Assembly: GCA_029863385.1 (NCBI GenBank)
Contig: JAOTVU010000001.1
Coordinates: 2,476-66,475 of the forward strand
Direction: 5' to 3'
Length of the DNA: 64,000 nt
Origin: Acidimicrobiia bacterium
GTDB taxonomy: Bacteria; Actinomycetota; Acidimicrobiia; Acidimicrobiales; SZUA-35
Shown here in pieces: positions 1,504 to 52,892 of the stretch. Both the position numbers and the translations under genes were made by a program. Position 1 is the stretch's first letter, and each line of letters starts with the position of its first letter. The notes beneath the pieces were generated by a model. That model was not told the DNA's origin. It did no database searches and saw nothing but the letters and a program-made list of their open reading frames with translations.

Positions 1504-1959
1504 TCAGTTCGAGACGAGCTGCCGAACGGCAGCGAGGGCCTCGTCGGCGTGCTTGTTCATGTTGGCCTCGCTCTTGATGACGGCCTTGACCTTGCAATCG
1601 GTGCCGATCACGAACGTCACCCGTTTGACCGGCAGCGGGCCGAACCGGGCGACGCCGAACTGTTTCGCCACCGTCTTGTCGGTGTCGGCCAACAACGGGA
1701 AACCGAGGTCGTTGGCCTCGTCGAACTGCTTCTGCCGATCGGACCGATCGGGCGACACCCCCACGATGCTGGCACCGAGTTCGGCGAACTCGGCCTGCAG
1801 ATCACGGAAGTGCTTGCTCTCCAGCGTTCAACCCGAGGTCATGGCCTTGATGTAGAAGTACACCACCACCGGTCCGGACTCGACGAGCGAGTCGAAGCTG
1901 ACCGGATCGCCGTGCTGATCATTGAGTGTGAAGCTTTCGACGGTGTCTCCAACGTTCAT
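1504..1959 (-). CDS. bcp: Bcp/PrxQ-type peroxiredoxin with in-frame TGA (1828-1830) at the peroxidatic Cys position; candidate selenoprotein, alternatively a nonsense pseudogene
   Basis: Manual translation from ATG 1959 gives MNVGDTVESFTLNDQHGDPVSFDSLVESGPVVVYFYIKAMTSG-TGA-TLESKHFRDLQAEFAELGASIVGVSPD..., in frame with track ORF 1504..1764. The TGA replaces the C of the T-x-x-C active-site motif. The track shows only the C-terminal 86 aa. Confidence 0.7.
1768..1824 (-). promoter_or_regulatory. candidate SECIS-like stem-loop region downstream of the in-frame UGA
   Basis: Two overlapping imperfect hairpins on the mRNA. One spans +4..+33 after the UGA (apical loop CACUUC). The other spans +30..+60 with a perfect 8-bp core CCGAGUUC/GAACUCGG (1775-1793, loop GCC). 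Neither has the classical fdhF G/U loop or spacing. Confidence 0.25.
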
Positions 1960-16352: not shown

Positions 16353-16429
16353 TGGTGGGCCCGGCGGGACTTGAACCCGCGACCGAGCGATTATGAGTCG
16401 CTTGCTCTGACCAACTGAGCTACAGGCCC
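16353..16429 (-). tRNA. tRNA with CAU anticodon (elongator Met, or Ile2 if lysidinylated), CCA encoded
   Basis: Cloverleaf folded by hand: GGGCCTG acceptor, GCTC/GAGC D stem, AGCGA-CTCATAA-TCGCT anticodon arm, GCGGG-TTCAAGT-CCCGC T arm, 3' ACCA. No C1:A72 initiator feature. Confidence 0.9.
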
Positions 16430-27229: not shown

Positions 27230-28732
27230 TCAGCCCGCCTCGTAGAGGGTAGCGGCGAGGTCAGAGCCGATGCTGACAGCGTCGAGGCCAGACCACGAGA
27301 CTCCCGACCAGGTCGCTCCCGACCACGTTCCGCCTGACCAGGTTGCGCCCGACCAGGTCGCCCCCGACCAGGTCGCTCCCGACCACGTTCCGCCTGACCA
27401 GGTTGCGCCTGACCACGTCGCCCCCGACCAGGTGGCCCCCGACCACGTTGCCCCGGACCAGGTCCCACCGGACCAGGTGCCTCCGGACCACGTGCCGCCG
27501 GCCCAGCTGTCGATTCCGGCCCACGAGGTGATCCCCAGTGCCGGTAGATGGACCTGGGTCGGGGCATTGACCGCCGCCGCAGCGTTCTCGGCTGCGGTGT
27601 CGGGGCGGACTTTGCCGGCTCCGTCGAGGAGGATGTTGTTCCGCTGGACGTCGTTGGCGTTCTGGACGAGCAGGTACTTGACCTGATCCGGAGAGAGCGT
27701 TGGCTCGGCCGACAGTAGCAGCGCCACCGAGCCTGACATGACGGCCGCAGCCTGTGACGTGCCGCTGCCCTTCATGAACCGCTCACCGACGGCGGCCTGC
27801 GGATACTCGCGGTCCAGGGTCGATCCTGGAACTCGGAGACTGACGATCGACTTGCCCGGGGCGACCAGGTCCGGGCTGCGCCCGGCGTTCCCGCCACTGG
27901 ACCAGGTTGCCACTCCGTCACGAACAGCCCGACCGTTCAATCCGCCGGTGGCGATCACGTAGGGGGACACCGCCGGGCTGTCGAGCCCGTTGCTCGAGTT
28001 CGTGCGATTGCCGGCGGCGACGACGACAACGATTCCGGCGTCCCACGCCCGCTCGACGGCGGCTGACAGGGGATCATTGAGATTCGACGGGATCCCCTCT
28101 CGGCCCAGCGAGAGGTTGAGGACCCGGATATTGAGCCCATCGGTGTTGCGGTGCTCGACGACCCAGTCGATGGCGGCGACGACCTGGGCGATGTGGGTCT
28201 CACCGGTGGCGCCGGCAACCTTCACCGAGACGATCCTGGAATCGGGGGCCATGCCCTTGAAACCACCCTCGACTCCGTCGTTGCCGGCGATGATGCCGGC
28301 CAGGTGGGTGCCGTGACCGTAGGTGTCGAGCGTGGCCAGATTCTGCAGCTCGCCCTCGTTCGACAGGTCAGGGCCAAACAGCACCTTGCCGGGCGCGTCC
28401 AGTCCCGGAACCGGGGCGACGCCGGTGTCGATCAATGCCACATCGATCCCCTGGCCGGTGTGGCCGAGCGCGGCCATCGGCTCGGCCTCGAACTGGCGGA
28501 CGAGGTCCATGGTGAGACCCTCCGAAGCAGCGCCATCACTTCCATTGTCCGGCTTGCCCAGGAAGGAGACCGAACCGGCCTCCTCGGCCGAAACGTAGGT
28601 CATCGTGGGAACAGCAAGCGTGGCCGCAACGATCAGCATCGTTGCCGTTGCGCCGGCGACACGACTCCATGCCCCTCGTCTGGAACGCCACATTCTGTGG
28701 CGGGCGGTACTGCTCGAAGGCTGATCGATCAT
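27230..28732 (-). CDS. secreted subtilisin-family (S8) serine protease with C-terminal [AG]TWSG pentapeptide-repeat tail
   Basis: Catalytic triad blocks VALIDTGV (D), HGTHLAGIIAG (H), GTSQAAAVMSG (S). N-terminal RR-containing signal plus TM. 14 tandem TWSG-type units at the C-terminus. Confidence 0.9.
   Translation of the reverse strand: MIDQPSSSTARHRMWRSRRGAWSRVAGATATMLIVAATLAVPTMTYVSAEEAGSVSFLGKPDNGSDGAASEGLTMDLVRQFEAEPMAALGHTGQGIDVALIDTGVAPVPGLDAPGKVLFGPDLSNEGELQNLATLDTYGHGTHLAGIIAGNDGVEGGFKGMAPDSRIVSVKVAGATGETHIAQVVAAIDWVVEHRNTDGLNIRVLNLSLGREGIPSNLNDPLSAAVERAWDAGIVVVVAAGNRTNSSNGLDSPAVSPYVIATGGLNGRAVRDGVATWSSGGNAGRSPDLVAPGKSIVSLRVPGSTLDREYPQAAVGERFMKGSGTSQAAAVMSGSVALLLSAEPTLSPDQVKYLLVQNANDVQRNNILLDGAGKVRPDTAAENAAAAVNAPTQVHLPALGITSWAGIDSWAGGTWSGGTWSGGTWSGATWSGATWSGATWSGATWSGGTWSGATWSGATWSGATWSGGTWSGATWSGVSWSGLDAVSIGSDLAATLYEAG
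27287..27529. repeat. 15-bp coding tandem repeat (about 14 regular plus 2 degenerate units)
   Basis: Plus-strand units such as GACCAGGTCGCTCCC / GACCACGTTCCGCCT / GACCAGGTTGCGCCC repeat head-to-tail. They are in frame within the S8 protease and encode [AG]TWSG. Confidence 0.85.
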
Positions 28733-28952
28733 GTCGGCTCCTGGATCTCGGCTGTTGATCCGGATGCCGGTTTCGCCACTCGCTCCCCGAACCGTCAGGC
28801 GACCATGTACGACGATTCGGATCAGTGCTTCATCCGCTTGCCCAATGACATCGGCCAACAAGCACCCGGAACTTGAGCGTTTGAGCGAAAAATCTTCGAC
28901 CGGCATCGTTGAATCCCGGGCAAGAACCGAGTGGCCGCGCGATCCTGGTGGT

Positions 28953-30296
28953 ATGGCTCCTGCACCTCCCCGACCGCCGATCCACAGGCAGGCGCCGCTG
29001 TTGGTGAAGATGTTCTCGGACCCCCAGCCTGTTCTCGATCAGTTGCGGGCCGAGTACGGGCCGGTGGTCGGCCTGGGATTCGGCCCGGCCAAGATGGCCA
29101 TTGTCGGTGGGCCCCAGGAGGTGCGGAGCCTCTTCACCCGCCCGGTCGAGGACTTCCGGTGGAATCACAAGTTCAATGCGCTGGCCGTCGTCGTCGGCCA
29201 GAAATCGATGATCACCTCCGACGGCGACGACTGGGCCCGACGCCGGGCGTCGGTGCAGTCCGCCTTCAGCCGGCGACGTCTGAACGGCTGGATCCCCATG
29301 ATCCTCGAACAAGCCGACGCCGCCATCGACGCCCTGCCAGCTGAAGGCACCCACGAAATCGACCTGTACCAGGTGGGACGAGCGGCAATCCTCGAGATCG
29401 TGGTTCGAGCCTTCTTCGGCGAGTCGATGGCCGACAGGGCCGCCCGATTCGGGGAACTGATGCAGGGCCCCCAGGACTACCTGGAGCTGCCGGCGTGGAG
29501 GCAGCTCCCACATCCGTTCCCGATCGGCAAACGTGGTCGGGTCAAGGCCGACCGTCGTGCGTTCGACGACCTCGTCCGGCAGGCCATGGCCTCGATCCGT
29601 GCGAATCCGTCGGGTGATCCCAATGACGTGTTGGAGGTGTTGGTCCACGACGACTCGGTGTGCGAGGAGGAGATCCTCGACCAGGCCAACACCCTGGTGG
29701 GCGCCGGGTTCGACACCACCGCCGCGTCGCTGGCGTGGATGCTGTGGTGCTGCGGCCTGGCCCCCGACATCTGGGCCGCACTACGGGTCGAAGCCGACGA
29801 GGTCCTCGCCCCGCCCGGGCACGACCACGACGCCGCCGACCACACAACCCTCAACCGGCTCGAAATCGCGGACCGCGTCATGCGTGAAACGCTGCGCCTC
29901 CACCCCGCCGGCGTGATCAGCCCCCGGGAAGCAGCCCGCGACATCGAGGTGGGCGGGTACACGATCACCGAGGGCACCCTCGTCCTGTGGTCGGCCCACC
30001 TGTGCGGCCGCGACCCGGACGTGTGGAACGACCCGCTCGACTTCGACCCCGATCGCTTCGACGACATGACCGAGGATCAGCGGGCGGCCGCCGACGCGGC
30101 GTGGGTTCCCTTCGGTGGCGGCCGACGCAACTGCATCGGTTTCGCGCTCGCCCAGATGGAACTCACCCTGCTGATCGCCAGGTTCGCCCAACGACTCGAC
30201 GTGACGCCACCGGCCACAGGCAAGCCCGGGCCGGTCGGCATGGTCGTCAACCGCCCACGAGGCGGCGTCCCCTTCCACGTCACCCGCCGCTCCTAG
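28953..30296 (+). CDS. cytochrome P450 monooxygenase
   Basis: I-helix VGAGFDTTA, ExxR (ETLR), heme loop FGGGRRNCIGFALAQME. Start taken at ATG 28953. Confidence 0.9.
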   Translation: MAPAPPRPPIHRQAPLLVKMFSDPQPVLDQLRAEYGPVVGLGFGPAKMAIVGGPQEVRSLFTRPVEDFRWNHKFNALAVVVGQKSMITSDGDDWARRRASVQSAFSRRRLNGWIPMILEQADAAIDALPAEGTHEIDLYQVGRAAILEIVVRAFFGESMADRAARFGELMQGPQDYLELPAWRQLPHPFPIGKRGRVKADRRAFDDLVRQAMASIRANPSGDPNDVLEVLVHDDSVCEEEILDQANTLVGAGFDTTAASLAWMLWCCGLAPDIWAALRVEADEVLAPPGHDHDAADHTTLNRLEIADRVMRETLRLHPAGVISPREAARDIEVGGYTITEGTLVLWSAHLCGRDPDVWNDPLDFDPDRFDDMTEDQRAAADAAWVPFGGGRRNCIGFALAQMELTLLIARFAQRLDVTPPATGKPGPVGMVVNRPRGGVPFHVTRRS

Positions 30297-31576
30297 CAGG
30301 GTGCTGGAATTCGGTTCTGGTGCTCGCGTTGTGGGCGGGGATCGAAAATACTGGTGGGATGCGAGGCAAACCGGATCCCCAGTCGGCAATGTTGACCACG
30401 GTGAGCACCGAGGAGTTGATCCCGGCTGATCACCCGATCCGGCGGATCCGTGTCGTTGTTGACGCCGTGCTCGCCGAGCTGGACCCGGTCTTCAACGAAA
30501 TGTACGCGTCGCGTGGTCGCCGGTCGGTGCCACCGGAGACGTTGTTGAAGGCCACGGTGTTGATGGCGATGTACTCGATCCGTTCCGAGCAGGCCTTCTG
30601 CGAACGGCTCAACTACGACTTGTTGTTCAAATGGTTCTTGGACATGCGGATCGACCAGCCGGCGTTCGACGCGACCACGTTCACCAAGAACCGCAAGCGT
30701 CTCTTGGACCACGATGTAGCGGATGAGTTCTTCGCCGCGGTGGTCCGCCAAGCCAAGCTGCGCCGCTATGTGTCATCGGATCACTTCTCGGTTGACGGGA
30801 CCCTGTTGAACGCGTGGGCGTCACACAAGTCGTTCAAACCCAAAGACGAGCCACCGTCGGACCCGCCGGCCGGCCGCAACAGTGAGGTCGGCTGGCGGGG
30901 CCAGAAACGGTCGAACGACACGCACGCCTCGACCACTGATCCCGAGGCCCGCTTGTATCGCAAATCCAGCAACACCCCAGCCCAGCTGTGTTATGCCGGG
31001 CATCTGTTGATCGAGCACCGCTCGGCGTTGATCATGGAGGCCGAGCTCACCACCGCGGACGGCTACGCCGAACGGGCAACCGCGCTCGAGATGCTGGATC
31101 GGCTTCCCGCCTCGAAGCGGCGGCGGACGGTTGCTGGTGACAAGAACTACGACACCAAAGGTTTCGTGGCCGATGTCCGAGCACGCGGGTTCACCCCTCA
31201 TGTCGCCCAGAACGTCAGCGGGAACCGGAACTCAGCCATCGATGGCCGCACAACCCGACATCGTGGACACGCGGTGTCCCAGCGGATCCGCCAACGAGTC
31301 GAAGAACCCTTCGGCTGGATCAAAACCATCGGCGGCGGACACAAGCTGCGTTACATCGGCCGGCAACGCAACCGGGCCTGGTTCAAAATGAACGCTGCGG
31401 TCTACAACCTGATCCGAATCACCGCCCTCGACGCTCAACCAGCCTGACCAGACCCGCCGCCGGCACCAGCATCGGCCCGGCTCCGCAACCAACACAAACG
31501 GCCAGACAACAACACACACATCTCTGGAAGATCGACGGCGACCAACGCCGCCAACCTTCCAAAGTTCAGCACCCTG
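30297..31576 (+). mobile_element. IS5/IS1182-family insertion sequence (about 1.28 kb) flanked by CTAG
   Basis: Terminal inverted repeats CAGGGTGCTGGAATTCGG (left) and CAGGGTGCTGAACTTTGG (reverse complement of right end). CTAG at 30293-30296 and 31577-31580. A single transposase ORF lies inside. Confidence 0.85.
30359..31447 (+). CDS. IS5/IS1182-family DDE transposase
   Basis: 362 aa. InsH-type N-terminal domain (HPIRRIR..LLKATVLMAMYSIRSEQAFCERLNYDLLFKWFL) and DDE region (VAGDKNYD). The track ORF's 5' extension overlaps the P450 and was trimmed. Confidence 0.9.
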   Translation: MRGKPDPQSAMLTTVSTEELIPADHPIRRIRVVVDAVLAELDPVFNEMYASRGRRSVPPETLLKATVLMAMYSIRSEQAFCERLNYDLLFKWFLDMRIDQPAFDATTFTKNRKRLLDHDVADEFFAAVVRQAKLRRYVSSDHFSVDGTLLNAWASHKSFKPKDEPPSDPPAGRNSEVGWRGQKRSNDTHASTTDPEARLYRKSSNTPAQLCYAGHLLIEHRSALIMEAELTTADGYAERATALEMLDRLPASKRRRTVAGDKNYDTKGFVADVRARGFTPHVAQNVSGNRNSAIDGRTTRHRGHAVSQRIRQRVEEPFGWIKTIGGGHKLRYIGRQRNRAWFKMNAAVYNLIRITALDAQPA

Positions 31577-43874: not shown

Positions 43875-44072
43875 AGAACGAGGAAGGCGACGAGCTGGCC
43901 TCCTGGGCGACTCCTCGATCTCAGGCAAAGATGTCGCGGCGACGATGACGCCCTCGTCACCGTTGCTACGGACCCATGGTTCGGATTCCCGTTGCCGTCC
44001 CGGTTGCTGTCCTGTGCCACGTCTGGTGGTGGCTTCCTTCGGCAAGATGTGCTCTGGCCTGGGGAAACGTTG

Positions 44073-44145
44073 CTCCGGGGGTGAGGCTCGAACTCACGAC
44101 CCACTGATTAACAGTCAGTTGCTCTGCCAACTGAGCTACCCCGGA
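44073..44145 (-). tRNA. tRNA-Asn (GUU), CCA not encoded
   Basis: Hand fold: TCCGGGG acceptor, GCTC/GAGC D stem, ACTGA-CTGTTAA-TCAGT anticodon arm, GTGAG-TTCGAGC-CTCAC T arm, CCCCGGA-G 3' end. Confidence 0.9.
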
Positions 44146-44323: not shown

Positions 44324-45709
44324 TTACCGGGGGCGATGGCGCTCGATCACCTCCGGCGAGATCCGCTTCAGCTCGCCGTCCGAGAACGGTGCCAGCACAT
44401 CCCACGCCACATCAAGGGTCTCCTCGATCGAGCGCTCGTGCTCCTGGTGGAGGAACCGACGCTCGAACGCCTCGGCGAAACGCAGGTAGCGGCGGTCGTC
44501 GTCGGACAGGCTGGCCTCGCCGATGATGGCCACCAGCCGGCGCAGGTCACGACCCTGGGAGTAGAAGGCGTAGAGCTGGTCGGAGAGCTGACGGTGGTCG
44601 CCGCGGGTCTTGCCGTCGCCGATCCCGGCGTTCATCAGGCGGCTGAGGCTGGGCAGGACGTCGATCGGGGGATCGACGCCCACTCGGTGGAGTTCCCGGG
44701 ACATCACGATCTGGCCCTCGGTGATGTAGCCGACGAGATCCGGGATGGGGTGGGTGATGTCGTCGTCGGGCATGGCCAGCACGATCAGCTGCGTCACCGA
44801 ACCCGGCCTGTCCCGGATCCGGCCGGCCCGCTCGAAGAGACCGGCGAGGTCGGTGTACATGTAGCCCGGGTAGCCCCGTCGACCCGGAATCTCCTCCCGG
44901 GCCGTCGACACCTCACGCAGCACCTCGCAGTAGTTGGTGATGTCGGTGAGGATCACCAGCACATGCAACCCGTGGACGAAGGCCAGGTACTCGGCCACCG
45001 TGAGCCCAAGCCGAGGCGTGAGGAGGCGCTCGATGGGCGGATCGTCGGCCCGATTGACGAAGAGCACGGTACGGTCGAGCCGTCCACTGTTCTCGAAATG
45101 CCGGCGGAAGAAGCTGGCTTCCCGTTGGGTGATCCCCATGGCGGCGAAGACGACGACGAAGTCCTCGCCGGTCCCGACCACTCGGGCCTGGGTGGCGATC
45201 CGAGCGGCCAGCTCGCCGGCTGGCAGGCCGAAGCCGGAGAAGATCGGAAGCTTCTGACCCCGGACCAGGGTGTTCAGACCGTCGATGGCCGAGATCCCGG
45301 TTTCGACATATTCCGACGGGTAGCTCCGCATGGCCGGGTTGATGGGCAGGCCGTTGACATCGCGGAACTCTTCCGGCATGGGGGGTGGTCCGCCGTCGAT
45401 CGGCCGACCGGAACCGTCGAGGATGCGGCCAAGTAGACCGCGGCCGACACCGAGCCGGGCAACATCCTGGCCCAGGCGAACCGTTGTGGTGGCCAGCCCG
45501 AGCCCCCGGGTTCCCTCGAATACCTCGATCACGGCCCGGTGGTCGTCGACCTCGAGAACCTGACCGGCCCGCACCCCGCCGTCGGCCGCCAGGACCTCCA
45601 CCACCTCACCGAGATGGGCGACGGCCGCCCGCTCGACGACGATGAGGGGGCCGGCGATGTGGGTCACGGTACTGAGCTCGTAGGTGAACAGCCCACCGGC
45701 GTGTCTCAT
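44324..45709 (-). CDS. atpB: A/V-type ATPase subunit B
   Basis: 461 aa. Blocks [22 protein letters not shown] and ITEGQIV. ATGA overlap with atpA. The 140-aa R/G-rich track extension was rejected. Confidence 0.95.
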
Positions 45710-47451
45710 CGACCCTGTACCTCCCCTTCGATTCTCTCGATCAGCTCGGTCGCCAATCGGCCGGCCTGGTCGGGTGGCCAGCTCCGCATACGGGCCACCG
45801 CTTCGACGGTGCCGGCCGGAAGGGGGCGCCCCCGGTCGGCATCGGCTTCGGCGGCCTCGACCAATTCCTCGTGCAGATGGCGGATGACCCGGAGCATCCA
45901 GTACTGCTTGGTGAGTGGGCAGAAGGCATCGACCTCGTCGAACGCCGATTGTTGCAGGAAGTCCTCCCGCAGGGTCTGACCGGTCTGGAAGGTGACGAGC
46001 TCGGCCGGGGCGAGAGCCTCGACGCCGAGCAGTTGGACGATATTCTGCAGCTCCTCCTCCTGGGCCAGCAGGCCCAGCGCCCACTGCCGCTGGTCCTCCC
46101 AGTCGGCTGCGACGTGCTCGTCGAACCACGGGCCCAGCCGATACAGGGTATAGCTGCGGTTCCAGTTGATGGCCGGGAAGTGGCGACGGCGGGCCAGATC
46201 GCTGTCGAGCGACCAGAACGTACCGGCCAGACGGAGGCTGTACTGGGTGACGGGCTCGGAAAGGTCACCACCCGGTGGCGACACGGCGGCAACGATCGTG
46301 ATCGACCCGTCCCGGGGGCGGCCACCGAGGGAGGTTGTGGCCCCGGCCCGCTCGTAGAACTCGGCCAGGCGGGACGGGAGATAGGCCGGGTAGCCCTCCT
46401 CACCCGGCATCTCCTCCAGCCGGCTCGACACCTCCCGAAGTGCCTCGCCCCAGCGGCTGGTGGAATCGGCCAACAGGGCCACGTCGTAGCCCTGATCACG
46501 GTGATACTCGGCGATGGTCATGGCGGTGTAGATCGAGGCCTCCCGGGCCGCCACCGGCATGTTCGAGGTGTTGGCGATGAGGATGGTTCGCTCCATCAGG
46601 GACGCACCGGTCCGCGGATCCCGCAGACGGGGGAAATCCTCGAGCACGTCGGCCAGCTCGTTGCCTCGCTCGCCGCACCCGACATACACAATGACATCGG
46701 CGTCGCTCCATTTGGCCAGGGTCTGTTCGTGAACGGTCTTGCCCGTCCCGAATCCGCCCGGGATGGTGGCGCTGCCGCCTCGGGCCACGGGAAACAGGGT
46801 GTCGACCACACGCTGACCGGTGGTGAGGGGCACCGTGGGGTCGAGCCGGCGGGCCACCGGCCGGCTCTGGCGCACCGGCCACCGGGACAGCATGGCGATC
46901 GGCTGGTCGTCGACCCAGACCACCGGATCGACAACCGTTGCTCTGGCCGACCCGATCGCAGTGACCGTTCCGGCCAGCGGCGAGACGACCCGATGCTCGA
47001 TGGCGGCGGTCTCGGGAGTGGTGGCCACCACGTCGCCGACGTCGACCCGGTCGCCGACCGAGACCTGCGGGGTCACCTCCCAGACCCGATCCCGGTCCAG
47101 AGCGGGAGCCTCGACGCCCCGGGCGATGAAGGGTCCACCCGACCGCTCGCCGTCACCGGCCGAGAGCGTGGTGAGAGGCCGCTGCACACCGTCGAACACC
47201 TTGCCCATCAGGCCCGGTCCAAGCTCGACGGTGAGCGGCCCGCCGGTGTGGTGGACGGGAGAGCCGACGTTCAGCCCGCTCGTCTCCTCGTAGACCTGGA
47301 TCACCGCCCGGTTGTCGCTCAACCTGATCACCTCGCCGATCAGGTTCTGCTCACCGACCCGAACCACGTCGTAGAGCTGAGCCCGATCGAGACCGGTGGC
47401 CTCCACAACCGGGCCGGCGGCCCGAACGACGCGCCCGGGGGTGGCCGTCAT
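45706..47451 (-). CDS. atpA: A/V-type ATPase catalytic subunit A
   Basis: 581 aa. Walker [42 protein letters not shown] overlaps at both ends. Confidence 0.95.
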
Positions 47452-47804
47452 GTCCCGGCCTCTTGGGGGAAGGAGATGTGGTAGCCGATGGCCCGCTCCA
47501 GCATTGCTGCGATTCGGGCCCGGTGGGTCCCGGCGTCGGCTCGCTCGAGACCTGCCGGGAGCGGCATCACGATCGGTTCGGTCGAGCGCTCGTAACGCTC
47601 CTGTGTTGCGGCTTCGAGCTCGGCGTGGAAGGGGGCGTAGACCCCGGCAATGCCCCGCTCCCCGCCACCGATCAGGGCGTCCACGATCGCCTCCGCCGCC
47701 GCGGCATCGGCCGCCTCCTGGACGACAACCCCGGCCAGGCGGAAACCGCCGGCCAGCTCCGGCGGCACCACCACCGTCAACAGTCCCGTCGGCGCCGTCA
47801 CCAT
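47448..47804 (-). CDS. atpF: A/V-type ATPase subunit F
   Basis: 118 aa. GFRLAG motif and the operon position immediately upstream of A. Confidence 0.8.
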   Translation of the reverse strand: MVTAPTGLLTVVVPPELAGGFRLAGVVVQEAADAAAAEAIVDALIGGGERGIAGVYAPFHAELEAATQERYERSTEPIVMPLPAGLERADAGTHRARIAAMLERAIGYHISFPQEAGT

Positions 47805-48901
47805 GGGAAGAGATCCTCCTCGACCTCGTTGAGCGGCAGCCGGTGGACCAGCGCCCGTCCGACGAGGCGGATGTTACGGGCTTCGCACTCCTTGGCCGAG
47901 GCGTAGGCGATGGGGATGGAGATCCCCAACGGATCGCCCCGGCCGAACAACCCGATGGCTCGACCGGCCAGTGCCCGTTCGAGCCTTCCGGCCAGACCGG
48001 CGAGATCGTCATCGCTGCTCCATTGCTCGAAGGCCCCCGACCAGCCCTCCGGAAGCCGGTGACCGGCCAGAGCGGCAACCAACTGCGCCCTGTCGGACGC
48101 CCGATGGACCTCATCCAGAACCCGGGGACGGAGCGTACCCCCCACTAGGAGGGTGTCCTCGGGGTCGGTCGGGGCCGGTCCCTCGTCGTCGCGCCGGCGC
48201 AGGGTCGAGAGCAGGTTGAGCAGGTCGATCTCGCTCCTGAGGATCTCCTCCAGGTCGCTTCCTTCCCAGTCGCCGAGGGCGTCGTCGACCGACTCGGCCC
48301 AGGCTCGCTGGAGCACCTCCTCCAGCACCATTGGATCGTTGCTGGCCGCGTAGCGCGGCCACTCGGCCAGCAGCCGTCGCGAGGTGCGGCGCGACGGGAG
48401 ATCCCAGGCCACCATCAACTCGATGGCCGATCTCAGCGACGGCTGGGAGGCCAGCTCGGCCAACGGGCCGGCACCGACTGTTCCGGCCGGAACAACCAGC
48501 GAGTCGAGTTCCCGATAGACGGTCGGGCGGGCCGTGGTGCGAACGATCGTCACCAGGTTGTGGCGGTCCCAGCGGCCGAGCAGCAACTCGATCCCGGCCG
48601 CCGCCCGCCCCTCGTAGAACCGGCGTAGGTCGCCCAGCGAACGCACGAGGTGATGCCGCACCGTCTCGTCGATCCGCCGCAAGGGGCCTCGGTGGACCAG
48701 GGCCCGCTCGAGATCCCGCTCATAGGCGGTGGAGCGCAGCGCCCCCAGCATGCGGTCGGCGCTTCCGGCGGCGTACAGCTCCCTGAAGTCCTTGCCGTCG
48801 AGCAGCTGGGCCCGCCGGGCTCGCAGGCGGGCATTGCCGTAGTCGAACCCGGATCCGGGCACGGCCCCACGCAAGGCGATCGGCCTCGAATTGTTCGTCA
48901 C
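47798..48901 (-). CDS. atpC: A/V-type ATPase subunit C (eukaryotic d-like)
   Basis: About 367 aa, all-helical. DYGNARLRARRAQLL N-terminus typical of subunit C. GTG 48901 overlaps the E stop (GTGA). The rest of the 719-aa track ORF was rejected. Confidence 0.75.
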   Translation of the reverse strand: MTNNSRPIALRGAVPGSGFDYGNARLRARRAQLLDGKDFRELYAAGSADRMLGALRSTAYERDLERALVHRGPLRRIDETVRHHLVRSLGDLRRFYEGRAAAGIELLLGRWDRHNLVTIVRTTARPTVYRELDSLVVPAGTVGAGPLAELASQPSLRSAIELMVAWDLPSRRTSRRLLAEWPRYAASNDPMVLEEVLQRAWAESVDDALGDWEGSDLEEILRSEIDLLNLLSTLRRRDDEGPAPTDPEDTLLVGGTLRPRVLDEVHRASDRAQLVAALAGHRLPEGWSGAFEQWSSDDDLAGLAGRLERALAGRAIGLFGRGDPLGISIPIAYASAKECEARNIRLVGRALVHRLPLNEVEEDLFPW

Positions 48902-49488
48902 GTCGCCCCCTCGTCCGAGAGTTGACCGGCGACCAGCTGTCGGAGCAACCGGTCGGCCCTCTCCAGGCGAGACTCGAAGGTGTTGTGCAGCACGCGGCCG
49001 TCGGCGGTTCTGAGCTCGAGCCCACCCCAACGGGGTGAACTCGCCGTCACCTCGACCCCGGCCCGGTCGCGCTCGGCCAGCAGTGATTCCACCAGTTCGA
49101 CGTCGGCCGGATCGACGTCGACCCGGGTGGCGTCGGGGAGCAGGGACAGCGCCTCGTCGAGCAGGCGAGCCAGGATCGTCGGGTACGATCCTGTTCCTCG
49201 AAGTGAGGACAGCCGGGTCCGCAGATCGACCAGGGCCTCCTGGTAGGCGGTTTCGACCGCCTCGAGTGAGGCCCGCCGGGCCTCCAGCCGTGCTCGATCG
49301 ACAAGCCGAGCCGCCTCCTGCTCGGCCACCCGGGACCGACCTGCGGCCGCGTCCTGTTCGACCCGGGTCGCCTCGGCCCGTGCTTTGTCCTCGAGCGCGG
49401 CCACCCGCCGGGCGGCCGTGTCCTCCAACTCGCCGATGACGTTCTCGCCGTCGGATTCGATGCTGGCCAGGATGGCGTCGAGTGCCAC
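48898..49488 (-). CDS. atpE: A/V-type ATPase subunit E (peripheral stalk)
   Basis: 196 aa. Long N-terminal charged coiled coil plus a globular C-terminal domain. GTG start abuts the K stop. Confidence 0.8.
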   Translation of the reverse strand: MALDAILASIESDGENVIGELEDTAARRVAALEDKARAEATRVEQDAAAGRSRVAEQEAARLVDRARLEARRASLEAVETAYQEALVDLRTRLSSLRGTGSYPTILARLLDEALSLLPDATRVDVDPADVELVESLLAERDRAGVEVTASSPRWGGLELRTADGRVLHNTFESRLERADRLLRQLVAGQLSDEGAT

Positions 49489-49710
49489 TCAGCCTCCAAG
49501 AAGCACGATGATCATGGCCGCCACTGCGAACCCGAGGATGACCAGGGTCTCGGGAATGGCGACCAGCAGGATGATGCGGCCGGTCAGTTCGGGATTCTCG
49601 GCGATGGCGCCGATCCCGGACGAGCCGATCCTGCCCTGTGCGTAGCCTGTGGCCAGGGCGGCCAGGCCAACTGCAATGCCGGCTCCGATAGCCAATAGTC
49701 CGGCTTCCAT
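49489..49710 (-). CDS. atpK: A/V-type ATPase proteolipid subunit K (c), single hairpin
   Basis: 73 aa. Two TM helices joined by the ENPE loop, carboxylate in IPETLVILGF. Strong SD AAGGAGGA. Confidence 0.9.
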   Translation of the reverse strand: MEAGLLAIGAGIAVGLAALATGYAQGRIGSSGIGAIAENPELTGRIILLVAIPETLVILGFAVAAMIIVLLGG

Positions 49711-49808
49711 GGGATCCTCCTTTGTCGGTTTGGTCTTCTGAAGTGACCGGTCGATGTGACTGGTCGTTGTACTTGGTCGGTTCGACTGTTGGTGTGGGTC
49801 GGTGGATG

Positions 49809-51722
49809 TCAGGAGTCGGGGTTGAGCTGCTCGACCGGTGGGTCGGCGTTGTTGTCGCCGCCGAACGCGCTGAACTCCTCACCCCCTTCTTCATAGAACT
49901 TGCTGAAGAACTCGACGTAGTGGAGCCGCAACGCCTGGATGGTTGGGCTGAAGACACCGAGGGCGAGATTGAGGGTGTGGAACAGGGTGCCGATCAGTAT
50001 CCCCACCAACAACGGGGCGGTGGCTCCGAGGTCGTTGGCCACCCTGGCCAGGAACACCGAGGCCAGCCCGATGGCCGCGATCCGCAGATACGAGAGCACA
50101 TTGCCCAATGCCCCGATGAGTTCGAGCGGGCCCATGACCAGACCCATCGCTCCCCCGCTGGCCATCATCACCACCAGCCCGATGACAACGGCCACCATAC
50201 CGGGGGTGACAAAACCGGCCGGCAGTTGCTCGGCCACCGCCAGCACGATCAGGAACGAGCCGGACAGGGCAACCAGCAGGGCGATGCGCTCGACGAGCTT
50301 GCTGGACTGCGCAGTAACCGCCGCCCTCCAGATCCCGAGTAGCACCCCGAGCACGACATGGACGGCCCCGATACCGAGGGACAGTACGAGCAATGGCTCG
50401 AGGGCCTCCTCCCGGTTGACCCAGATCGGCTCGAGGTCGAACAGGCGGTGGCCGAGATCGCCCAGGAACTCGCCGTAGATCACGCCCCAGACCATCGACC
50501 ACACGGCGGCCAGGACCAGGATGCGGCTCACGTCTCGCACCGCCCCCGGTCGGTTGCCGAAGCGGCGCCCGACCACCAGTGCGATCACCAGCAGGGCCGC
50601 GCCGTAGGCGATGTCGCCGAGCATGATGCCGATGAAGAGCGGCATGAAGGCCAGCATCAGCAGTGTCGGGTCGAACCCGCCGTAGACGGGGATCGCCAAC
50701 AACCGGAGGAAGAGCTCGAACGGCCGGGCCACAGCGGGGTTGTCGAGCAGTACCGGCGGGCTGTCCGACTGGCCGGGCGGGCTGTCGAGCAGCACCGTCG
50801 AGCCTCCCGCCGTTTCGGCCAGCGCCGCCCTCACCTCCGCCAGCCGTGGGGTTGGCACCCAGCCGCAGACGACGAAGGTGTGGGAGGTGGCCCCCATCAG
50901 CCGAACCGCGGCCAGCTGGTCCATGCGGGCCGCCAGCTGGCCGCTGGCCACCACCCAGCTGCCGTGGGGGGCAACCAGCCGCTGTATCCTGTCCCGCCGG
51001 TCCTCGAGCTCGGCCGGCAGCTCGTCCAGCCGGCGCTGCATCGCGGCCAGAGCCCGGCGGAAGGGGAGCCCGCTGAAGCGTTGCGGCAGACGGACCCGGC
51101 TCAGCTGCTCCCGGCCCAGCAGCGAGGCCACGTCCTGGGACCGGCGCTGGGGGAACACGATGAGGGCGCCGATGGTGTCGGCGTCAACCCGATCGGAGAT
51201 GATCTCGAAGTTCCCGTCCAGCAATTCACCCAGCTCGACGTCGAGCGCGGCCAACACGTCGGGAAAGTGGCTGTCGATCAAGACCGCAGAAGTCTCGTAT
51301 CCCTCGGTGATGGTCGCCTCCGGGAGCAGGGGGAGCAGCCGTCCAAGGGCGGCGATGTGTCGAGGCAGGTTGTCCTGCTCGGCCGTCAGTTCCTCCATCT
51401 CGATCACCAACCGCTCGATTTCCGGACCGACCGCATCGAGTTCTCGTCTGATCTCGTCGAGATCGATCGTGGGAGCGGGCGACGGCACCGGCGGTGGTTC
51501 GGGCAGCAGGGCAAGCAGCGAGTCGATGCGGGCCCGGAGCAGGCGGGCCTCATGGAGTTCGGCCAGCTGCTCGTCGTCGACCCCGAGCGGCGGGAGGTGA
51601 ACCTCGTGATCGGCGGTGACATCGATGAGATGGACGACGTGGAGGGCGTGCAGCCGTGCCACCACCTCATCGAGGTGGCGACGGTGGCCGATCACGTGGA
51701 CCTTCGTCATGTCGACGAGCAT
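49809..51722 (-). CDS. atpI: A/V-type ATPase subunit I (a)
   Basis: 637 aa. Soluble coiled-coil N-terminal half and a polytopic C-terminal half with conserved Arg in LSYLRIAAIGLAS. Confidence 0.9.
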   Translation of the reverse strand: MLVDMTKVHVIGHRRHLDEVVARLHALHVVHLIDVTADHEVHLPPLGVDDEQLAELHEARLLRARIDSLLALLPEPPPVPSPAPTIDLDEIRRELDAVGPEIERLVIEMEELTAEQDNLPRHIAALGRLLPLLPEATITEGYETSAVLIDSHFPDVLAALDVELGELLDGNFEIISDRVDADTIGALIVFPQRRSQDVASLLGREQLSRVRLPQRFSGLPFRRALAAMQRRLDELPAELEDRRDRIQRLVAPHGSWVVASGQLAARMDQLAAVRLMGATSHTFVVCGWVPTPRLAEVRAALAETAGGSTVLLDSPPGQSDSPPVLLDNPAVARPFELFLRLLAIPVYGGFDPTLLMLAFMPLFIGIMLGDIAYGAALLVIALVVGRRFGNRPGAVRDVSRILVLAAVWSMVWGVIYGEFLGDLGHRLFDLEPIWVNREEALEPLLVLSLGIGAVHVVLGVLLGIWRAAVTAQSSKLVERIALLVALSGSFLIVLAVAEQLPAGFVTPGMVAVVIGLVVMMASGGAMGLVMGPLELIGALGNVLSYLRIAAIGLASVFLARVANDLGATAPLLVGILIGTLFHTLNLALGVFSPTIQALRLHYVEFFSKFYEEGGEEFSAFGGDNNADPPVEQLNPDS

Positions 51723-52105
51723 CGGCCCTCCTCCGTCGGGATCTGCACCACGAGAGCCACCATGTCATCAAGCCGCTCGGTCAGGCGGGGCCGCAGGGTC
51801 TCCAGCAGGCGGTCGGCCTCGTGCCGACCCTCTCGCCGGATCCGGTCGGCCTCCTCGCCGACGGTGGCAAGCCGCTCACGGTGGTGGGCCTCGGCCTGCT
51901 CGACTCCCCGTTTGCGAGCCTCGACGACAGCGGCGTCGGCTGCGGCCTGGGCCTCGGTCACACGGGCTTCGGCCGCCGCCTTGGCCTCCTCGATCCGGCG
52001 GACCATCTCCCGCTCCGCCTCGCGTATCGTGGCCAGCATTGTCGCCACCCGAGGCTGCTCGACAGCGCCGGGCAGACCGTCGTTGCGCCGGGTCGCGTCG
52101 TTCAT
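51707..52105 (-). CDS. A/V-type ATPase peripheral-stalk protein (G/H-like coiled coil)
   Basis: 132 aa, Ala/Glu/Arg-rich heptad-like sequence (IREAEREMVRRIEEAKAAAEARVTEAQ..). ATGA overlap with the D stop. Embedded in a 369-aa track ORF whose upstream part is rejected. Confidence 0.55.
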   Translation of the reverse strand: MNDATRRNDGLPGAVEQPRVATMLATIREAEREMVRRIEEAKAAAEARVTEAQAAADAAVVEARKRGVEQAEAHHRERLATVGEEADRIRREGRHEADRLLETLRPRLTERLDDMVALVVQIPTEEGRCSST

Positions 52106-52749
52106 CGTCGGGCCCCCTGGGCGAGGCGAGCCGCCCGCTTTCGGGCCGATCGCTTGAGCCGGAACCGGTCCTGGCGCTCGCGTTCGTCGAGCACGGATCT
52201 GATCCAGGCACAGTCGCTCCGGAGTCCTGGGATCACCATCGTTTCGAGGGCGTTGACTCGCCGGGTTGTGGTGCGAACCTCGTCCACGAGTCGCCGCAGC
52301 CGTAGCTCGTACCGGGCGTATTCGAGGAATCGGTCGATGGCCACCTCGAAGCCTTTGGCGGCCTCGTCGATGCGAGGGCTGCTGCCGGCCATCGAGTAGC
52401 CGCGGCCGGTGCGGGGCCGGCCGGCCGGTTCGGCCAGGATCTGCACGATACGCACACCCATGACCGTCGACGTCCGGGTCGTGGTCAGCAGCTGACGCCC
52501 ACCGGCACCGGCCGCCGATCCCACCTGCTCGGGACCGTCGAGGGCCTCGGCCAGAGCGAGGGCCCTCCTCCCGTTGGCAAGCGCCGCGTCGAGGGCCTCG
52601 CTGCTGGTGAGGATGTCGTCCCCGGTCTCCCGCAGCTCCTTCATCAGCTGCTCTCGTTTCTCGCGAAGAACATCGCGGCCGCGAACCGCCATGGCGATCT
52701 GCGCGTTGCGGGCCAGCAGCTCCGATCGGGTTGCGGTGACTCGCTCCAT
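52102..52749 (-). CDS. atpD: A/V-type ATPase central-stalk subunit D
   Basis: 215 aa. N-terminus RVTATRSELLARNAQIAMAVRGRDVLREKREQL and C-terminal RERQDRFRLKR are typical of subunit D. Confidence 0.9.
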   Translation of the reverse strand: MERVTATRSELLARNAQIAMAVRGRDVLREKREQLMKELRETGDDILTSSEALDAALANGRRALALAEALDGPEQVGSAAGAGGRQLLTTTRTSTVMGVRIVQILAEPAGRPRTGRGYSMAGSSPRIDEAAKGFEVAIDRFLEYARYELRLRRLVDEVRTTTRRVNALETMVIPGLRSDCAWIRSVLDERERQDRFRLKRSARKRAARLAQGARR

Positions 52750-52751
52750 CG

Positions 52752-52892
52752 TCAGTCCATCCCCACGCAGCCGACCGCGGCGTCGATGGGGCCGTTGTCG
52801 TCAAAGCCAGCGGCACCGGGCGCCCATACTGCAGCGCCGGTCACGATCGTGTCGAGGATCGCCATACCCCGTCTGGAGATGAGGTTCTTCAT
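52752..52892 (-). CDS. small ORF (46 aa) ending 2 nt upstream of atpD; hypothetical
   Basis: MKNLISRRGMAILDTIVTGAAVWAPGAAGFDDNGPIDAAVGCVGMD. G/C-biased third codon positions, GAGGTG about 10 nt upstream of the ATG, no recognisable family. May instead be untranslated leader. Confidence 0.25.
   Translation of the reverse strand: MKNLISRRGMAILDTIVTGAAVWAPGAAGFDDNGPIDAAVGCVGMD

Follow-up and report, generated by a model that had tools for sequence, protein, structure and literature searches.

The window analysed here, the whole 64,000-nucleotide stretch of contig JAOTVU010000001.1 from an Acidimicrobiia bacterium, carries on its minus strand a gene for a PrxQ/BCP-type peroxiredoxin (Prx) with a single in-frame TGA at the position of the peroxidatic cysteine; our subject is how this codon is decoded. 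Reading from ATG 1959 gives MNVGDTVESFTLNDQHGDPVSFDSLVESGPVVVYFYIKAMTSG-[TGA 1830..1828]-TLESKHFRDL...VSN, with one internal stop and without a frameshift, and the position of the start codon is common to the orthologues. A sequence-only reading of the stretch had already followed this frame through the TGA into an 86-amino-acid open reading frame (ORF) with its stop at 1504, and retranslation agrees; the ORF list of the window contains the gene only as its two halves. The features of the locus are as follows.

1504..1959, minus strand: full PrxQ/BCP-type peroxiredoxin gene, 151 codons including the proposed selenocysteine (Sec) 44; ATG at 1959, stop TGA at 1506..1504
1828..1830, minus strand: in-frame UGA, here read as selenocysteine (T-S-G-U; TxxU), at the peroxidatic position
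1818..1827, minus strand: 10-nt spacer after the UGA, predicted to be unstructured, which would sit inside the ribosome with the UGA in the A site
about 1752..1817, minus strand: long hairpin H1, whose main stem spans 1813..1755 in the window and pairs the HFRD codons with the IVGV codons, with two outer G-C pairs in addition
1774..1794, minus strand: P2, the tip of H1, CCGAGUUC-GCC-GAACUCGG; loop not conserved
1735..1751, minus strand: hairpin P3, proposed SelB-binding core of a SECIS (selenocysteine insertion sequence), CCGAUCG-GUC-CGAUCGG; 7-bp stem, G(U/G)N triloop at 1744..1742
1504..1764, minus strand: C-terminal 86-amino-acid ORF annotated by gene callers in place of the full gene

Several comparisons place the protein among the BCP/PrxQ enzymes. 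With a Cys put at the stop, residues 3-126 match Pfam AhpC-TSA (PF00578) at 1.2e-30 over model positions 1-123/124, and the top NCBIfam match is the thioredoxin-dependent thiol peroxidase (Bcp) at 2.4e-29, with a score of 102 bits that lies below the equivalog cut-off of 140. BCP/PrxQ structures are the top matches in the PDB, the closest being 5EPF (E 7e-40), which we take to be Mycobacterium tuberculosis PrxQ B / BcpB. The two proteins are collinear over 148 residues and have in common the active-site segment MT-x-G-[C/U]-T-x-E-x-x-HFRDL as well as the arginine segment KR-x-TFVI, but 5EPF has Cys at the peroxidatic and +5 positions and Pro in FFYPAAMT, where the window protein would have Sec, Lys and Ile. 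Position 44 aligns with the first Cys of the 5EPF stretch AAMTPGCTKEACHFRDL (PGCTKEAC), the same string that the sequence-only reading had given for mycobacterial BcpB; the Pfam and 5EPF alignments thus agree with its placement of the TGA at the catalytic T-x-x-C cysteine of a Bcp/PrxQ protein.

TGA is the normal stop of 27 of the 45 genes in the window, so the code is standard and has undergone no genome-wide reassignment; decoding under genetic codes 4 or 25 is thereby ruled out. In the public protein collection the window gene is present only as P0010 (86 aa, 100% identical, JGI), the kind of truncation by gene callers that had been anticipated from the sequence. The best full-length matches there are Cys forms with at most 69% identity, and the collection holds no full-length close orthologue. 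Because it offers only the 86-aa fragment and Cys-form full-length matches, the gene is evidently split by gene callers in the whole clade.

Conservation of the in-frame TGA under purifying selection

Orthologues came from two scans. A genome scan with one genome per species returned 28 loci; at 16 of these, all from metagenome-assembled genomes (MAGs) of Acidimicrobiales, Acidimicrobiia or Actinomycetota, the same codon is TGA and the frame is intact to the normal end, at 61-93% protein identity. Among the matches listed in a metagenome scan, at least 14 loci have TGA at the same codon and many are Cys forms; further Sec-form sequences exist. The window, the 16 intact genome loci and 14 metagenome loci make up the Sec-form set (n = 31), and the Cys-form set (n = 70) consists of relatives with TGC or TGT at the Sec codon. 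Close orthologues occur, among the matches listed, only in Acidimicrobiales-type MAGs, from samples of sand, soil and water. A 17th TGA genome locus, L025 (CAVRSZ010000007.1), has a 1-nt deletion just past P3 (CAGAAGG to CAAAGG) that shifts the frame; the deletion may be an artefact of assembly, or the locus a genuine pseudogene.

The sequence-only reading had pointed to the orthologous codon, and to selection past the TGA, as informative about whether the gene is functional, and both turn out in favour of a functional gene. Orthologues have TGA and more distant relatives TGC or TGT, and the median ratio of nonsynonymous to synonymous substitution (dN/dS; pairwise Nei-Gojobori) is 0.272 downstream of the TGA, the same as the 0.274 found upstream. 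For the window and its orthologue L001 the corresponding dN/dS values are 0.052/0.398 upstream and 0.042/0.396 downstream, and TGA-form assemblies diverge to a dS of ~1. Purifying selection has kept the UGA and the frame on both sides of it across the Acidimicrobiales clade, as these sequence comparisons show.

In a neighbour-joining tree, which has no support values, the Sec forms make up one clade of 31 leaves with only two Cys forms inside it, L017 and L032. L032 (RCMY010000023.1, locus 1630) is a TGC form nested in the Sec clade that keeps the P3 stem with the loop CCGUG and in which H1 is not stabilised (z = +0.4); from its sequence it looks like a recent Sec-to-Cys reversion. L017, the second, is without the P3 hairpin. 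The surroundings of the gene vary as well: tRNA-Met and tRNA-Asn are adjacent in L015 (1449-1601), 1.4 kb upstream of its Sec-PrxQ gene, and lie 28 kb apart in the window, so that the clade has no conserved synteny around the gene.

A recent nonsense mutation, or a base-call or assembly error, would make this a broken or mis-sequenced Cys-PrxQ gene, the alternative that the sequence-only reading had itself raised. The splitting of the gene by gene callers (P0010) and the frameshift in L025 are what such an error or pseudogene would produce, but 31 independent assemblies, with divergence up to a dS of ~1 and a dN/dS of ~0.27 on both sides, share TGA at this codon, and it is accompanied by a TGA-form-specific RNA structure. 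A chance mutation, a base-call error and a decaying pseudogene are excluded, and we give this explanation a negligible probability.

Two adjacent hairpins downstream of the UGA

Lining up 17 genome sequences from the TGA revealed a conserved stretch, CCGAUCGGUCCGAUCGG, at +80..+96 (window 1751..1735), which is hairpin P3. All 14 of the 14 independent metagenome Sec forms yielded P3 again, with other loop and closing-pair sequences (CGGUG, AGGUU, AGGUG and GGGUC, and CGUGG once). In the 31-sequence alignment 99.5% of the cells for its six core pairs are paired, and the stem shows compensatory changes in L015 (UCGAUC/GAUCGA) and L016 (CUGACC/GGUCGG). RNAalifold adds a seventh, closing pair (GC 14, CG 7, AU 5), with 12 double changes, which leaves a triloop of GUC or GGU. 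P3 is fully paired in 26 of the 31 Sec forms compared with one of the 70 Cys forms, L032.

Conservation here follows the RNA more closely than the protein. The residues encoded by P3 vary (R-S, P-V, Q-V, R-V) with the hairpin retained. Its Asp codons are GAT (28/29 and 28/28) and its Arg codon is CGG, in a genome of 66% G+C; in the Cys forms the Asp codon is GAC in 57 of 70. Synonymous diversity falls to 0.13 at codons +26..+31, against 0.46-0.49 elsewhere, and the minimum free energy of P3 has z = -2.7 relative to synonymous recoding, compared with -0.05 for the Cys forms.

The consensus for a bacterial SECIS comprises a loop of 3-9 nt on a stem of 4-16 bp, with N1-G-[G/U]-N-N2 and the loop 16-37 nt from the UGA (PMC13188914). 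P3 fits this published model in the apical loop (3-9 nt, with G within the first two loop positions) and the stem (4-16 bp), and it also fits a description of the SECIS as a stem of 6-8 bp whose loop has a conserved G (PMC4605307). In most sequences its energy is no higher than -7.5 kcal/mol, and a simple implementation of the model constraints accepts it as a triloop hairpin in 25 of 31. At canonical spacing, a simple contiguous-stem implementation found no model-satisfying hairpin in any of the 31 Sec forms, and the window contains no convincing further copy of the P3-like motif. We regard P3 as the probable SelB-binding core of a SECIS, judging from its sequence and conservation.

Between the UGA and P3 lies the longer hairpin H1. 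Across the 31 Sec forms, mean base-pair probabilities nowhere exceed 0.35 at positions 0-16 after the UGA, whereas those of the stem between positions 17-30 and 62-75 (HFRD with (I/R)VG(V/I) codons) are 0.5-0.86, and the EFxEL palindrome (36-44/48-56) is enclosed within this stem; among the 70 Cys forms no H1 pair exceeds a mean probability of 0.35. Single-sequence folds start H1 at position 13-17 and end it at 75-78, abutting P3, and in a more divergent subgroup it is lengthened by AGCUG/CAGC(U), built from different codons. H1 pairs are formed in 83-85% of cells, and pair 21:73 covaries (CG 17, UA 8); a single-column covariation scan was too noisy for use. In 30 of 31 Sec forms the natural spacer exceeds its synonymous recodings in stability (mean z for the Sec forms -2.75, compared with -0.5 for the Cys forms), and the corresponding 100-nt segment of the window has a fold of -45 kcal/mol (z = -2.2 relative to dinucleotide-shuffled sequences).

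When the first 11 nt are kept unpaired, each of the 31 sequences folds into a single hairpin followed by P3. In these constrained folds 18-29 steps along the exterior loop separate the UGA from the P3 loop, with a median of 19 compared with 24 for recoded spacers, and P3 is undisrupted in 31 of 31 natural sequences compared with 64% of recodings. A conserved RNA structure of two adjacent hairpins is confined to the UGA-bearing genes. The support for H1 is clearly weaker than that for P3.

Two imperfect stem-loops after the UGA had been put forward in the sequence-only reading as SECIS candidates, and they fare differently. The one at +30..+60, with its 8-bp core at 1775-1793, exists, but it is the tip of H1 with a variable loop (GCC, ACC, UCC, CAG, AGU and others; synonymous diversity 0.32), and we rejected it as a recognition element. 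The one at +4..+33 is not conserved, and its 3' half pairs with +63..+74 within H1. Neither is the conserved SelB-type hairpin.

In four loci with Thr-Ile after the Sec (ACG AUC G; L002-L004 and L011) the palindrome CGAUCG occurs three times, at +4..+9, +80..+85 and +89..+94; the window has ACGCUG at +4..+9. Unconstrained folds of these four sequences pair the UGA-proximal CGAUCG with the 5' arm of P3, a competition that would be resolved only with the ribosome covering the UGA region.

The gene might instead encode a selenoprotein for which H1, with its apical loop 42 nt past the UGA, is the working SECIS, leaving P3 an accessory role or one in mRNA stability or regulation. No other local structure is as stable as H1, G is the first loop base in 22 of 31 sequences, and H1 begins 10 nt past the UGA, about where the minimal SECIS of E. 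coli begins. Its apical loop, however, is not conserved (synonymous diversity 0.58 at codon +15) and has no G at either of the first two positions in 9 of 31 sequences, and its spacing too is outside 16-37 nt; it is P3 that has the deepest synonymous constraint, an invariant G in the loop and a covarying closing pair. We therefore hold this assignment of roles to be quite unlikely.

Decoding of the UGA and a proposed mechanism

Several lines of evidence suggest that the UGA at 1830..1828 is very probably decoded as selenocysteine in a PrxQ/BCP-type thiol peroxidase, as far as can be judged from comparative sequence analysis. The whole explanation that we favour, a Sec-PrxQ with P3 as the SECIS core and H1 looping out the spacer, has in our estimate a probability of about 0.8. 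P3 would be the SelB-binding element for Sec insertion at the UGA, and folding of H1 would remove ~65 nt of coding sequence from the path, leaving P3 ~20 nt from the A site, a near-canonical distance; in SelB modelling the conserved G lies ~20 nt downstream of the UGA (PMC4605307, PMC13188914). As H1 starts 10 nt past the UGA, it would stay folded with the UGA in the A site. Whether H1 acts as a distance-closing device, a role suggested by the modelled folds, we consider an even bet.

A possible reason for this layout lies in the protein. The residues T-x-E-S-x-H-F-R-D-L past the active site are invariant or nearly so, and we conjecture that they are too constrained to leave room for a G(U/G)N hairpin that SelB could bind, so that the hairpin may have been placed further downstream, in the more tolerant SxDxxDRQ loop.

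Several observations weigh against the explanation. The P3 loop begins 83 nt past the UGA, outside the 16-37 nt of the consensus model, and in E. coli Sec insertion is strongly dependent on SECIS spacing. No Rfam SECIS match was found, either in window positions 1650-1900 at E<=10 or in the whole window at the gathering threshold. The measure of effective spacing barely discriminates, in that recoded spacers also give a path of at most 37 steps in 99% of the cases in which P3 survives. RNAalifold did not recover H1, whose synonymous diversity is only mildly lowered (0.32-0.40); its P1 core is 70% paired even in the Cys forms and so is partly due to conserved amino acids, and L062 folds differently from the other Sec forms. 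Finally, neither the 64-kb window nor the flanks of the orthologous loci that were examined contain selA, selB, selD or a tRNA-Sec, and the Sec machinery is assumed.

This last result comes from several searches. Pfam scans of ~50 window ORFs gave no SelA, SelB or SelD, the only tRNAs in the window are tRNA-Met (16353-16429, minus strand) and tRNA-Asn (44072-44145, minus strand), and no tRNA-Sec was found in the flanks of the orthologous loci. A tblastn search with E. coli SelA, SelB and SelD queries, of unverified sensitivity, gave no match either in the window or among 108 loci. Neither the window nor the Sec-locus flanks yielded another in-frame-TGA gene with a two-sided coding signal; the cases seen were adjacent genes in the same frame. 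Within the same class, selA, selC and selD are reported from 84/84 complete genomes of Actinomarina, together with a divergent selB that scores below the profile threshold (preprint 10.64898/2026.04.03.716425).

With the machinery of the source genome assumed and the spacing of P3 outside the canonical range, the UGA might be read through without Sec, for example by a near-cognate tRNA, giving Cys, Trp or a similar residue with H1 as a generic stimulator; H1 is placed like known read-through and frameshift stimulators. All relatives, however, have the catalytic Cys at this position, so an active enzyme would require Sec or Cys there. Such a generic model would leave no role for the G(U/G)N loop of P3, which is strictly conserved and matches the SelB-binding consensus, and Sec machinery is reported in the same class. 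Read-through of this kind is, we think, very unlikely.

A different arrangement would keep P3 as the SelB-binding element and have it act at its true linear distance, with a divergent SelB that reaches further or is pre-loaded, so that H1 would be incidental. The description of the Actinomarina selB as divergent would suit this arrangement, as would an effective-spacing statistic that is nearly as good for recoded spacers. Yet in 30 of 31 Sec forms, and not in Cys forms, the stability of H1 significantly exceeds that of recodings, and H1 keeps P3 free of competing pairings in 31 of 31 natural sequences, compared with 64% of recodings. We judge action at linear distance to be unlikely, and looping out of the spacer by H1 remains the reading that we prefer.

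Active site, surroundings and relation to known selenoproteins

The catalytic residues agree with a peroxidase of this family. In T41-S-G-U44 the Thr is invariant, as is the C/U column, over 101 sequences. R113, in VKRVTFVI, is invariant in a 16-sequence alignment and aligns with PVKRTTFVI of 5EPF; it is probably the catalytic Arg of the family. Two further positions set the Sec forms apart. The near-universal Pro of the PxxxTxxC motif, at codon -7 from the Sec, is replaced by Ile in the window's subclade (YFYIKAMTSGU in the window; 1831-1854, minus strand); Ile is the majority residue there in Sec forms (59%), and 97% of Cys forms have Pro. At +5 (codon 1813-1815) the resolving Cys, which defines the CxxxxC subtype and not the whole PrxQ/BCP family, is Lys in this subclade (U-T-L-E-S-K in the window protein) and is retained in 14 of 29 Sec forms compared with 99% of Cys forms. 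The only other Cys of the window protein, C121, is Arg in close relatives. The enzyme of the window subclade may accordingly work as a 1-Sec peroxidase whose selenenic acid would be reduced directly by an external thiol partner.

The genes next to the peroxiredoxin gene are ordinary (a P450, a septum-formation protein and a valyl-tRNA synthetase). Elsewhere in the window, a c-di-GMP-II-GAG riboswitch aptamer (Rfam; 28756-28841, minus strand) matches at full length with 59.4 bits against a gathering threshold of 40; it lies just upstream of a minus-strand subtilase gene (Peptidase_S8, ~27233-28750), and a cytochrome P450 gene runs divergently from it. A transposase ORF lies at 29987-31447 (plus strand; DUF772 and DDE_Tnp_1), between the P450 gene and a Germane-domain gene; no other mobile element is obvious in the window. 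A V/A-type ATPase operon at 44324-52800 (minus strand) has A, B, E, I and D subunits and a c-subunit-like ORF ending at 49491; an in-frame TGA in this operon corresponds to two adjacent genes in the same frame.

Peroxiredoxins are an established selenoprotein family with the TxxU motif (PMC13188914): 12 Prx selenoproteins were counted in 2006 and 91 in 78 organisms in 2016 (PMC5029168), and five Cys-to-Sec events are reported for the family (PMC1794560). The window protein shares with the Sec-Prx family (PF00578; Eubacterium acidaminophilum PrxU is an experimentally demonstrated member) the replacement of the peroxidatic Cys by Sec, the TxxU motif and a Cys ancestor. It differs, by the published descriptions, in belonging to a PrxQ/BCP clade in Acidimicrobiales MAGs, in the Ile and Lys that its subclade has for the motif Pro and the resolving Cys, and in having its hairpin ~83 nt from the UGA. 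Since Sec-peroxiredoxins are already known, the protein adds a lineage and not a principle.

The layout of the recoding signal departs from the spacing rule that defines the bacterial SECIS, and it looks new. Like the bacterial consensus (the bSECISearch model; E. coli fdhF type), P3 has a loop G followed by G or U, an N1:N2 pair and a 7-8 bp stem; unlike it, the P3 loop is 83 nt from the UGA rather than 16-37 nt, and a 65-nt hairpin is intercalated after the UGA-proximal spacer. Archaeal and eukaryotic SECIS elements in untranslated regions likewise are not immediately adjacent to the UGA, but they lie outside the coding region, carry the motifs GAA_A or a kink-turn AUGA and use other factors (PMC13188914), whereas P3 is inside the ORF, 26-31 codons downstream, with a loop of bacterial type. 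A benchmark of deep-Sep found at least 40 known genes for selenoproteins (13%) that bSECISearch misses, and reviews and recent papers mention a minority of selenoprotein genes with unexplained atypical SECIS elements. A limited literature search found no description of a looped-out SECIS spacer. We propose only tentatively that the locus represents an undescribed class of bacterial SECIS, in which a SelB hairpin ~80 nt from the UGA reaches the ribosome entrance because a conserved hairpin of 65 nt loops out the coding sequence in between.

If this is true, the rule that a bacterial SECIS lies immediately downstream of its UGA would concern through-space and not linear distance, and finders that require a spacing of 16-37 nt would systematically miss selenoprotein genes of this kind. 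The clade offers 31 aligned natural variants of one atypical SECIS, with a delimited SelB-type hairpin and a testable structural explanation. Because the protein collection holds no full-length close orthologue, inventories of peroxide defence in these organisms are likely to be incomplete. As for the enzyme itself, the Sec subclade, having lost the motif Pro and the resolving Cys, amounts to a natural experiment on the active-site changes that selenium allows in a peroxiredoxin.

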